Positions 34,746 to 36,694 of a stretch of 64,000 nucleotides of DNA are shown in pieces. Source of the stretch: Eubacteriales bacterium (GTDB lineage: Bacteria > Bacillota > Clostridia > Oscillospirales > CAG-272); NCBI GenBank assembly GCA_045587385.1, contig JAZNCE010000003.1, positions 23,754-87,753 on the forward strand, in the 5' to 3' direction. Positions within the stretch are counted from its first letter, which is position 1. Each line of letters starts with the position of its first letter. The position numbers and the translations under genes were made by a program. The notes beneath the pieces are model-generated. The model saw only the letters and a list, made by a program, of their open reading frames with translations, did not search any database and was not told the DNA's origin.

Positions 34746-35552
34746 ATGTCCGAACTTACTTATATTGACAGAATCAAGAAGATCAAAAGCGAGCGCCGCA
34801 TCACCAACGACAAGCTGTCCGAGATGACCGGCATCCCGCTCGGTACGCTTTCTAAAATTTTGGCAGGCATCAGCGATTCGCCCAAGCTTTCCAACATGCT
34901 GGCGATCTGCCGCGCCCTGGATTGCTCTTTGGATTATATCGTCAGCGGCACGCCCGAAAATCATCATAATTATACTCTGACGGACGGTGAGATCGCACTG
35001 GTCGAGCACTACCGCCGCCTTGACAGCCACGGCAGCGAGCTGGTCGCGCTGGTGCTGGATAAGGAATACGAGCGCGTGACCGCGCAGTCCTACGCAGCTG
35101 CACCCGCACCTGTAACCCCTGCGCGTCAACCCGAAATCAAGCCCTCCAAATCGAGCTTTACCCGCGTGTCGGGCGGACTTGGCAAGCGCACCATCAGCCT
35201 GTACGACCTGCCCGTTTCCGCTGGTACGGGTGTGTATCTGTTTGACAGCGTTGCGACGGATATTGCTATCCCTGACAACGGAAAAACTGCCGATGCGGAC
35301 TACGCGCTGCGCATTTCGGGTGACAGTATGGAGCCCAAATATCACGACCGTGACGTGCTGCTGATCCAGGAATGCGATCAGATCGAGCCCGGCGAGCTCG
35401 GCATTTTCGTGCTGGACGGCGAGGGCTATTTCAAGAAGTTCGGCGGCGATTGCCTGATCTCGCTTAACCCCTTCTACGCGCCCATCATGCTGCGCGATTT
35501 CGAGGACATCCGCTGCTGCGGCAGAGTCATCGGTAAGCTGCATAAAAAGTAA
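34746..35552 (+). CDS. XRE-HTH / S24 peptidase (LexA- or phage-repressor-like) self-cleaving regulator
   Basis: N-terminal HTH (NDKLSEMTGIPLGTLSKILAG). C-terminal S24 domain (RISGDSMEPKYHDRDVLLIQ...YFKKFG) carrying the Ser/Lys dyad. Confidence 0.85.
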   Translation: MSELTYIDRIKKIKSERRITNDKLSEMTGIPLGTLSKILAGISDSPKLSNMLAICRALDCSLDYIVSGTPENHHNYTLTDGEIALVEHYRRLDSHGSELVALVLDKEYERVTAQSYAAAPAPVTPARQPEIKPSKSSFTRVSGGLGKRTISLYDLPVSAGTGVYLFDSVATDIAIPDNGKTADADYALRISGDSMEPKYHDRDVLLIQECDQIEPGELGIFVLDGEGYFKKFGGDCLISLNPFYAPIMLRDFEDIRCCGRVIGKLHKK

Positions 35553-35597: not shown

Positions 35598-35673
35598 CTT
35601 ATATTAGATAGGGGGGGTGAGATTGCCCAATATCATTGAGTTGAAAAACTCTTTACCGGACAAGCGAACGGAA

Positions 35674-35858
35674 CGGATGCGCTCTATAAAGGCGTACCCC
35701 GGGGGGAAGCTGTCGCGCAGCGACTGAAGGGGAATTCGAAAGTTTGGTTTTGAATTGTTTTATCCGAACGGGAAGCCGCGCCGTTTTGTCCGCAACTCCC
35801 CTTCAGTCGCCTGCGGCGTCAGCTTCCCCTCGGGGGACGCCTATGCAACGCGCGTCCG
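35674..35858. repeat. ~185-bp imperfect palindromic element
   Basis: Arms GGCGTACCCCGGGGGGAAGCTGTCGCGCAGCGACTGAAGGGGA (35691-35733) and TCCCCTTCAGTCGCCTGCGGCGTCAGCTTCCCCTCGGGGGACGCC (35797-35841). Pairing extends outward to 35674/35858. It shares the words GGGGAAG and CGCAGCG with the 4408-4444 repeat. Confidence 0.85.
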
Positions 35859-35869
35859 CATTGTTTGGT

Positions 35870-36149
35870 TAGCCGTACGGGAGTCGAACTAAGTTGGTTT
35901 TGACGGGCAGATTTTCCCCATCCCTGCAGCGTTTCCCTTGGACATACTGCCTGTATGCCCTGCGGGAAAAGCTTTTGGGCTCAAAAAAATCTGCTGCGAC
36001 AAAACTGCTCGCACCCGAGGGCGAATGCATTTTTGATAGATTTTGGTGGGATTTTGCGAAGCAAGATACCAATCTTGCGAGTAAAAGCACGCCGAAAGAT
36101 GCGAAAATCCCTCGCTCCCGGGCAATTCGGTTCGATTCCCGTACGGCTA
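35870..36149 (+). ncRNA. candidate structured RNA or MITE: ~280-nt rod-like element with 20-nt terminal inverted repeats that look like tRNA T-arm/acceptor 3' halves
   Basis: TAGCCGTACGGGAGTCGAAC (35870-35889) pairs with GTTCGATTCCCGTACGGCTA (36130-36149). Pairing continues inward with G-U pairs (AGTTG/CAATT, GATTTTC/GAAAATC, CATC/GATG). Internal hairpins at 35938-35960 and 36060-36077. An alternative pairing is GGGATTTT (36048) with AAAATCCC (36103). A terminator follows at 36174-36199. Strand and RNA status are unproven. Confidence 0.35.
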
Positions 36150-36173
36150 TGCATTCGCGCCTAAACCACACCT

Positions 36174-36199
36174 GAAAATGGGTCCCAACCCATTTTTGG
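36174..36199 (+). terminator. hairpin terminator between the rod-like element and bcp
   Basis: AAAATGGGT-CCCA-ACCCATTTT followed by TGG. Symmetric A/T runs mean it could act in either direction. Confidence 0.6.
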
Positions 36200-36241
36200 A
36201 GCAGAGCTCCACGGTGAGGTTTCAAAAGTTAGGAGGATATT

Positions 36242-36694
36242 ATGTTAACAGTAGGACAAAAAGCACCCGATTTTACCTTAAACGATCAGAACGGCAATCC
36301 CGTATCTCTTTCCGACTTCCTTGGAAAAAAGGTAGTCGTGTATTTCTATCCCAAGGATAATACCCCCGGCTGCACCCGTCAGGCTTGCGCATTTGCGGGC
36401 GCATACGAGGCATTCAAGCAAAAGGATATCGTGGTCATCGGCATCAGCCGCGACAGCACGGCGTCGCACGTCAGATTCGCCGAGAAGTATAATCTGCCCT
36501 TTATTCTTTTGTCCGACCCCGACCGTATTGCCATTGAGCCCTTTGGTGCATGGCAGGAGAAAAAGCTGTACGGCAAGCTGGGGCTCGGCATTGTGCGCTG
36601 CACCTTTATCATTGATGAGCAGGGAATCGTGTCCCACGTCATGCCCAAGGTCAAGCCCGACACCAATGCAGCAGAGATATTGGCACTTCTTTAA
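36242..36694 (+). CDS. bcp: thioredoxin-dependent peroxiredoxin Bcp
   Basis: RBS AGGAGG. FYPKDNTPGCTRQAC peroxidatic-Cys motif. 150 aa. Confidence 0.92.
   Translation: MLTVGQKAPDFTLNDQNGNPVSLSDFLGKKVVVYFYPKDNTPGCTRQACAFAGAYEAFKQKDIVVIGISRDSTASHVRFAEKYNLPFILLSDPDRIAIEPFGAWQEKKLYGKLGLGIVRCTFIIDEQGIVSHVMPKVKPDTNAAEILALL

Follow-up and report, generated by a model that had tools for sequence, protein, structure and literature searches.

A 280-nt repeat upstream of bcp in an uncultured clostridial genus of the ruminant gut is probably a TA-targeting bacterial MITE

The window analyzed here is a stretch of 64,000 nt from a Eubacteriales bacterium (GTDB lineage Bacteria; Bacillota; Clostridia; Oscillospirales; CAG-272; GenBank assembly GCA_045587385.1, contig JAZNCE010000003.1, positions 23,754 to 87,753 of the forward strand). 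The region of interest contains two neighboring palindromic repeats of separate families, followed by a terminator-like hairpin and the peroxiredoxin-like gene bcp (Table 1). Just upstream of the repeats lies a gene for a repressor with XRE-HTH and S24-peptidase (LexA-like) domains (34746-35552), which has diverged paralogues at C130:14789-15534 and on contigs C135, C127, and C124. The second repeat, here called family A, had been viewed in a preliminary description of the sequence as a rod-shaped element with three possible identities: a 6S-like or other small RNA, a leader for bcp, or a MITE with inverted repeats resembling a tRNA 3' end.

Table 1. Coordinates of the family A element, its parts, and its neighbors in the window
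Feature	Position	Strand	Basis or remark
Complete copy of family A, probable MITE	35870..36149	+	Non-coding, 280 nt, GC 51%
Left TA, target dinucleotide, duplicated or shared	35870..35871	.	First two letters in 39 of 40 copies; sister species have one TA at their empty sites
5' terminal inverted repeat, 5' strand of the closing stem	35870..35896	+	Inverted-repeat search; helix 1
Left arm, long imperfect hairpin including the 35938-35960 hairpin	35897..36005	+	Alignment A1, helices 2-5; both sides have changed in helices 3, 4, and 5
Small junction hairpin, TGC...GCA	36006..36013	+	Helix 6; predicted in families B and C too
Right arm, long imperfect hairpin including the 36060-36077 hairpin	36014..36122	+	Helices 7-10, with double-sided changes
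3' terminal inverted repeat, holding GGTTCGATTCCCGTACGG	36123..36149	+	Inverted-repeat search; identity to the 3' part of tRNA-Glu(UUC)
Right TA	36148..36149	.	36 of 40 copies end with TA; comparison of the empty and filled C66 site
Separate palindromic repeat family, 24 nt upstream of the element and outside it	35690..35845	.	Fold of -99.9 kcal/mol (z -7.7); about ten copies in the genome
Terminator-like hairpin and T-run, belonging to the flank and not to the element	36174..36199	+	Found at this position before bcp in G001, G004, and G009, where the element is missing
bcp, peroxiredoxin-like, 150 aa, downstream neighbor outside the element	36242..36694	+	ORF list; orthologous loci in relatives

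The element is sharply bounded, and the same boundaries recur in the 12 full-length copies of its own genome and in 40 distinct copies across species. A search of the genome assembly (3.3 Mb in 147 contigs) for further copies, as the preliminary description had proposed, recovered these 12 internal copies, which are 89-100% identical and each exactly 280 nt long without indels, together with about 26 partial copies. Every partial copy is placed at a contig end and is thus explained by assembly breaks inside the repeat; 140-nt half copies acting as the ends of longer IS were ruled out on the same grounds. The near-identical copies number about 25-30 in all. Copies begin with TAGCCG and finish with CGGCTA, and the flanks of the own-genome copies are unrelated directly outside these ends. 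Furthermore, no ORF is open across all 40 family A copies. Two forms of only 47 nt, at C63:9834-9880 and C147:29130-29176, consist of the family A inverted repeats alone, flanked by TA; their centers differ, and they look like independent internal deletions. The ~155-nt palindromic repeat family represented at 35690-35845 is often nested with family A, whose copies lie against or inside its AT-rich center at C95:14313 and on C133, C105, and C6.

The element is present in multiple copies in all 16 genomes (species) of the genus, whereas 25 genomes representing other genera in the family and order lack it. Pattern scans of public genomes returned hosts recorded as uncultured Clostridia, Eubacteriales, or Oscillospiraceae bins, mostly from the hindgut of goat, sheep, yak, cattle, and roe-deer.

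Comparisons between species unveiled the insertion events themselves. The joined flanks of 11 copies were used as models of empty sites and searched across the genus, and five own-genome copies were matched to empty sites in sister species. The clearest of these corresponds to the copy on C66, where G009 reads taatccgatgc-TA-acctctttt and the own genome reads taatccgatgc-TAGCC...GGCTA-acctctttt, a net gain of 278 nt. Since the site holds a single TA when empty and TA-element-TA when filled, the copies are insertions at TA. No target duplication longer than TA was found among the copies, and a true duplication of TA would look the same as a case in which the second TA is the element's own end and insertion occurred next to an existing TA. 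Tandem copies in other genomes overlap by exactly one shared TA. Additionally, the flank profile is weakly and roughly palindromic (T-rich, S S T | TA | A S S, A-rich), as would be expected if a dimeric enzyme acted on double-stranded DNA. The copy at C138:6183-6462 has the ends AA...TT in place of TA...TA, a complementary change, at a site that is a normal TA when empty in G009; two chance mutations may account for it.

The same comparison can be made at the locus itself. Upstream of bcp in G001, G004, and G009, the sequence runs from the stop codon of a gene X through cttgttcag-TA-tgcattcgcgcctaaaccacacct to the hairpin and T-run, the ribosome-binding site (RBS), and bcp, with no element; the empty site reads cttgttcag-TA-tgcattcgcg. 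The hairpin and T-run at 36174-36199, noticed in the preliminary description, were thus incorrectly assigned to the element, since relatives without the element have the same terminator upstream of bcp. It probably terminated the gene that lay upstream in the ancestral arrangement. The window copy inserted at the TA between the stop codon of that gene and this terminator, ahead of bcp. Likewise, the element is not a bcp leader, because sister species keep bcp and the same upstream region without it. The ancestral left flank (cttgttcag) is now found at the 5' end of the copy at C48:28024-28303, and the right flank follows the window copy; this exchange reflects either MITE-mediated recombination between the two copies or an assembler chimera formed through the repeat. 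In G004 (L106, G004:C43:1600-2400), a ~126-nt segment upstream of bcp, with the TA target and the terminator hairpin, occurs three times in tandem.

With flanking genes called by a codon-usage score, the gene on the 3' side of the element heads towards it in 25 cases vs 5, and of the 16 copies whose neighbors both run in the same direction, 13 have their + strand antisense to those genes. The bcp copy belongs to the co-oriented minority. In several copies, the 5' end lies 5-15 nt from the RBS of the next gene. This pattern resembles the outcome of insertion preferences acting locally, or of selection in the vicinity of terminators and RBS regions, and it makes no case for a function of the + strand as RNA.

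The termini of the element are inverted repeats, as had been noticed. The ends TAGCCGTACGGGAGTCGAAC (35870-35889) and GTTCGATTCCCGTACGGCTA (36130-36149) can pair at 19 of their 20 positions, with 0.01 such matches expected by chance in the window, and the repeat reaches 27 nt at 85% and is conserved in all copies. The core sequences of the two ends are ACGGGAGYCGAAC and GTTCGRCTCCCGT. The T-loop-like motif pointed out in the preliminary description proved to be part of a longer likeness: at the 3' end, the 18 nt of GGTTCGATTCCCGTACGG exactly match a part of the genome's own tRNA-Glu(UUC) gene (C130:10909-10983) that covers T-loop, T-stem, and acceptor sequence, and the complement sits at the 5' end with one mismatch. 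In the family A consensus, the match is 17 of 18, with C where the window copy has T. As a control, 1,500 random genomic 280-mers gave longest exact tRNA matches of 9-11 nt, and two reached 15-16 nt, a count that sets aside about ten much longer matches that presumably overlap tRNA genes. The tRNA likeness of the ends is therefore real in sequence terms, and a derivation of the inverted repeats from the 3' end of tRNA-Glu is plausible but unproven. It does not extend to a tRNA-like fold, because the 5' strand of the T stem in the element is not complementary. ARAGORN reports neither a tRNA nor a tmRNA in the window, in agreement with the preliminary description. A tRNA or tRNA-derived gene was accordingly rejected, the likeness being an 18-nt stretch of sequence with an unpaired T stem.

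Family A has two sister families. Family B is 281 nt long (TATAGCCGAAGAGAGCCGAAC...GTTCGGCTCTCTTCGGCTATA), with own copies at C130:6791-7069, C134:4561-4839, and C54:3503-3785 and a further copy (C62:10471-10760) nested within the family A copy at C62:10397-10952; it is 59% identical to family A, and its predicted architecture is the same. Family C, recovered in a metagenome scan with the left-arm motif, is 281-283 nt long (TAAGTTGACGGGAGCCGAAC...TTCGACTCCCGTCAACTTA); it lies on metagenome contigs L215-L249, several of them from the human gut, where its ends are written TAAGTTGACGGGAGCCGAAC...GTCAACTTA. The three consensus sequences are 55-59% identical and have in common a length of ~281 nt, TA ends, the inner core ACGGGAGYCGAAC of the inverted repeats, several internal blocks, and a predicted Y fold. 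Of the tRNA likeness, families B and C retain just an 11-nt T-loop-like core. A strict superfamily motif found no further genome among 400 sampled across the class (401 searched, with the own genome as the sole match), so the distribution is narrow.

The fold of the element is its second conspicuous property. Treated as RNA, 35865-36205 reaches -149.2 kcal/mol on the + strand (z -8.4) and -135.9 kcal/mol on the - strand (z -6.2). The relatives and covariation called for in the preliminary description were provided by alignment A1, which brings together 40 distinct copies and draws on a dozen genomes or more. Its consensus fold is not a rod but a Y, formed by a closing stem (columns 1-27/256-282), a left arm (28-137), a 3-bp junction hairpin, and a right arm (147-255). 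After ~27 closing pairs, the 5' side of the element pairs within itself, and each arm measures ~110 nt. Overall, 98.5% of the cells are paired in this fold. Compensatory double-sided changes occur in 22 of 95 pairs, compared with 11.6±1.7 in shuffled alignments (none of 500 as high) and 2-7 when the registers are slid by 1-3 columns. Both internal hairpins listed in the preliminary description (35938-35960 and 36060-36077) are present and are kept in other copies by such changes (helices 5 and 10). In copy L177, one entire helix of the right arm has been swapped for a different sequence that still pairs.

It is important to consider which strand this conservation acts on, as the G-U pairs of the stem had been taken to favor RNA over DNA. 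Folding with single-strand RNAalifold favors the G·U pairs of its own strand, giving 84 G·U vs 28 A·C for the + structure and the mirror image for the - structure. Once pairs are picked without strand bias, the signal is gone: derived mismatches number 13 G·U and 13 A·C among the 57 pairs shared by the predictions for the two strands, and 87 and 97 in the union set. Since the two kinds are equally frequent, the constraint is strand-symmetric and RNA is not favored. The + strand is the more stable in 32 of 40 copies, and the source is the 8 G·U vs 4 A·C positions of the family consensus; because that surplus already exists in the consensus, the 32 copies are not independent evidence. Template-switch correction within quasi-palindromes is a known mutational process. 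A strand-symmetric constraint suits such correction, or a DNA palindrome selected for its hairpin or cruciform, at least as well as it suits RNA. The compensatory changes and the constant ~281-nt Y in three families exceed the needs of a plain cut-and-paste MITE and count against that reading.

Taken together, these observations indicate that the 280-nt element before bcp is very probably a copy of a TA-targeting, non-autonomous mobile element, that is, a bacterial MITE. It is short, has no coding capacity, carries terminal inverted repeats, and exists in many dispersed copies with both empty and filled sites. In the literature, four traits define bacterial MITEs: inverted repeats, 5'-TA-3' at the termini, duplication of the target, and a predicted fold of high stability (PMC2229807). 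Family A shows all four and lacks coding capacity. Many copies with a target duplication had also been named in the preliminary description as the finding that would speak for a MITE and against the RNA readings. Against the assignment, at 280 nt and 51% GC family A exceeds classic bacterial MITEs in length and is less AT-rich. Family A is thus a new family within an already known class of elements.

Such a MITE would be moved in trans. A transposase would bind the conserved inner part of the inverted repeat, ACGGGAGYCGAAC, at both ends, excise the element, and paste it into a weakly palindromic target centered on TA; the TA would be duplicated in the process, and family A would thereby integrate at TA dinucleotides and have a TA on either side of each copy. 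The usual agent of TA duplication is an IS630/Tc1-mariner-like DDE transposase, and an enzyme of this class may be suspected here. The target agrees with an IS630/Tc1-mariner origin, and a matching IS630-family (DDE_3) transposase was not found: neither PF13358 (DDE_3) nor NF033545 above its cut-off had a match in any of the 16 genus genomes. Inward-facing pairs of the inverted repeats 0.5-3 kb apart were absent from the genome and the fetched loci. No partner transposase with the element's inverted repeats was found in the genome, in 97 fetched genome stretches, or in 35 metagenome contigs, and none in the plasmid, phage, and viral collections. Pattern scans over the genome, metagenome, and viral collections, like the BLAST searches of plasmids and phages, returned just further MITE copies, family C, or one chance match. 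Consequently, an autonomous IS sharing the inverted repeats, the remaining hallmark of a MITE, was found neither in these sets nor elsewhere in the genus. The absent mobilizer is the main gap in the MITE account. Because fragmented metagenome bins are prone to losing IS contigs, little weight can be placed on this absence. Many accepted bacterial MITEs, for example Correia, also have no known partner.

Several other candidates for the partner, or for the mode of movement, were set aside. Genes for IS4/IS5-type DDE enzymes are sporadic (5 of 16 genomes), and the genes within large repeats of the genome are those of ABC transporters, regulators, and an integrase, with no transposase among them. 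A guide-RNA idea, in which variable blocks of the element would match its flanks as in the bridge RNAs of IS110, failed because the longest matches between flank and interior stay at the level of permuted flanks. Orientation of the copies is not linked to replication (19 vs 14 by GC skew). Genes for Y1 transposases occur in 14 of the 16 genus genomes; in the own genome, one belongs to an IS200-like multi-copy element (C94:25681-26311 and C62:62530-62960; 138 bits to PF01797) that has end hairpins CCCCGCCATAGTGGCGGGG and CCCCCGTTATACGGGGGG and breaks contigs. Its ends and hairpins are unrelated to those of the MITE, and it was rejected as a partner.

A more structural proposal, which we regard as doubtful, can also be made. 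Families A, B, and C could be one lineage of elements in which the Y itself, a closing stem with a T-arm-like core and two arms, is the substrate of mobilization, be it folded single-stranded DNA or RNA, and is handled by a host enzyme or an unrecognized one rather than by an IS-encoded DDE transposase. A more specific account would have the element move as single-stranded DNA, its hairpins recognized by an HUH/Y1 enzyme (IS200- or RAYT-like) in the manner of REPINs or of palindromic elements derived from IS200/IS605, with insertion 3' of TA. The compensatory retention of the Y hairpins well above the shuffled level, the repetition of the architecture in families B and C, the frequency of Y1 genes in the genus, including that of the genome's own IS200-like element, and the failure to find a DDE partner all agree with this account, and a TA followed by an element ending in TA is equally what insertion 3' of TA would leave. 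On the contrary, long near-perfect inverted repeats and a symmetric target typically go with enzymes that work on double-stranded DNA, the IS200-like element differs in its ends and hairpins, RAYT-like matches are absent from the own genome, the mismatches are strand-symmetric, and copies show no bias with respect to replication direction. We therefore consider movement as single-stranded DNA an unlikely, though still viable, alternative.

The RNA readings fare worse. They hold that the element is a structured non-coding RNA gene, 6S-like or otherwise, or a cis-acting leader of bcp, with its function in a + strand transcript. The very stable fold, the greater stability of the + strand, the significant covariation, and the orientation of the window copy along bcp would all be expected of such an RNA. 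Nevertheless, the sequence exists in some 25-30 copies in both orientations, at filled sites that differ between species, and a consensus scan found no sigma-70-like promoter inside it. Searches of Rfam, also advised in the preliminary description, gave no match at gathering thresholds over the whole window and, at E <= 10 over 35600-36260, a single noise match (MAT2A_A, 14 bits); with no covariance-model match to rely on, what is left is a covariation that is the same on both strands and fits a DNA palindrome equally well. The equal numbers of derived G·U and A·C mismatches and the predominantly antisense position of the + strand also count against an RNA. The mutually exclusive pairing with GAAAATCCC listed in the preliminary description is not conserved, as its CCC is peculiar to the window copy. 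A 6S-like or rod-shaped small RNA is not supported, as the element is mobile and multi-copy, lacks a promoter, and has a supposed terminator that is that of the flank, and the leader reading is contradicted by the sister species, in which bcp has the same upstream region and terminator and no element. Thus, the RNA-gene and leader readings are very improbable and effectively excluded: family A is neither a dedicated regulatory RNA nor a single-copy RNA gene.

The probability is negligible that the element is instead what remains of a tRNA-targeting integrative element, or a pair of tRNA pseudogenes, as the inverted 18-nt identity to tRNA-Glu(UUC) at both ends might suggest, since integration at a tRNA gene yields direct repeats at one locus and not inverted repeats at ~30 loci, the T stem is not kept and ARAGORN finds no tRNA, families B and C have the 11-nt core only, and the copy number and empty sites already contradict it.

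As a MITE, family A can be placed among known bacterial repeats. The Correia or NEMIS elements of Neisseria are likewise non-coding, multi-copy, and intergenic, with inverted repeats starting in TA, a TA target duplication, and a stable predicted hairpin, and their host has no known cognate transposase (PMC2229807). They are the nearest analogue of family A by behavior, given the TA flanks and the lack of a known transposase. In contrast, Correia elements are 100-155 bp long, AT-rich, and proteobacterial, with unrelated inverted repeats and a single hairpin, whereas family A forms a Y with two ~110-nt arms. RUP of Streptococcus pneumoniae is a Firmicute MITE inserted at TA, for which mobilization in trans by an IS630-family enzyme was inferred from the similarity of the inverted repeats (PMC2229807). 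The TA target is common to both, but RUP is 107 bp long and has a candidate partner in IS630-Spn1, whereas no IS630-type gene was found in the 16 genomes with family A. The repeat bcr1 of the Bacillus cereus group is mobile and intergenic, has no known transposase, and forms a cruciform-like structure of two stem-loops kept by compensatory changes (PMC3184786). It is the nearest precedent for a mobile Firmicute repeat with a two-stem-loop fold maintained in this way, although it is ~155 bp long, makes a 5-bp duplication rather than using TA, and is known to be transcribed. REPINs with their RAYT enzymes and the palindromic elements derived from IS200/IS605 are also hairpin-forming mobile repeats in which structure is conserved above sequence. 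However, they lack long terminal inverted repeats, depend on HUH/Y1 enzymes acting on single-stranded DNA, and usually flank a RAYT gene. No linkage of family A to a RAYT/Y1 gene was found; Y1 genes exist in the genus, and the IS ends are unrelated. Family A stands apart from Correia, RUP, and bcr1 by its 280 nt, by a Y common to three diverged families, and by an inverted-repeat core resembling the T arm of a tRNA.

These results have practical consequences for annotation, as a candidate small RNA or bcp leader is replaced by a repeat family, and masking of this family is warranted in bins of gut Clostridia. Family A fragments assemblies, with ~26 contig ends of this genome inside the repeat, and it can mislead analyses of synteny, as the exchanged flanks of two copies illustrate. 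Copies often lie only a few bases from ribosome-binding sites or just past terminators, so the expression of the neighboring genes may be altered. The constant length of ~281 nt and the Y fold in families only 55-59% identical and without a transposase, along with termini resembling tRNA-Glu, would be of specialist interest once established. If the Y is indeed what is mobilized, the three families would represent a class of TA-targeting elements of gut Clostridia that is defined by its structure and whose termini were perhaps recruited from a tRNA. Family A itself is a recently active mobile element of an uncultured genus of the ruminant gut.
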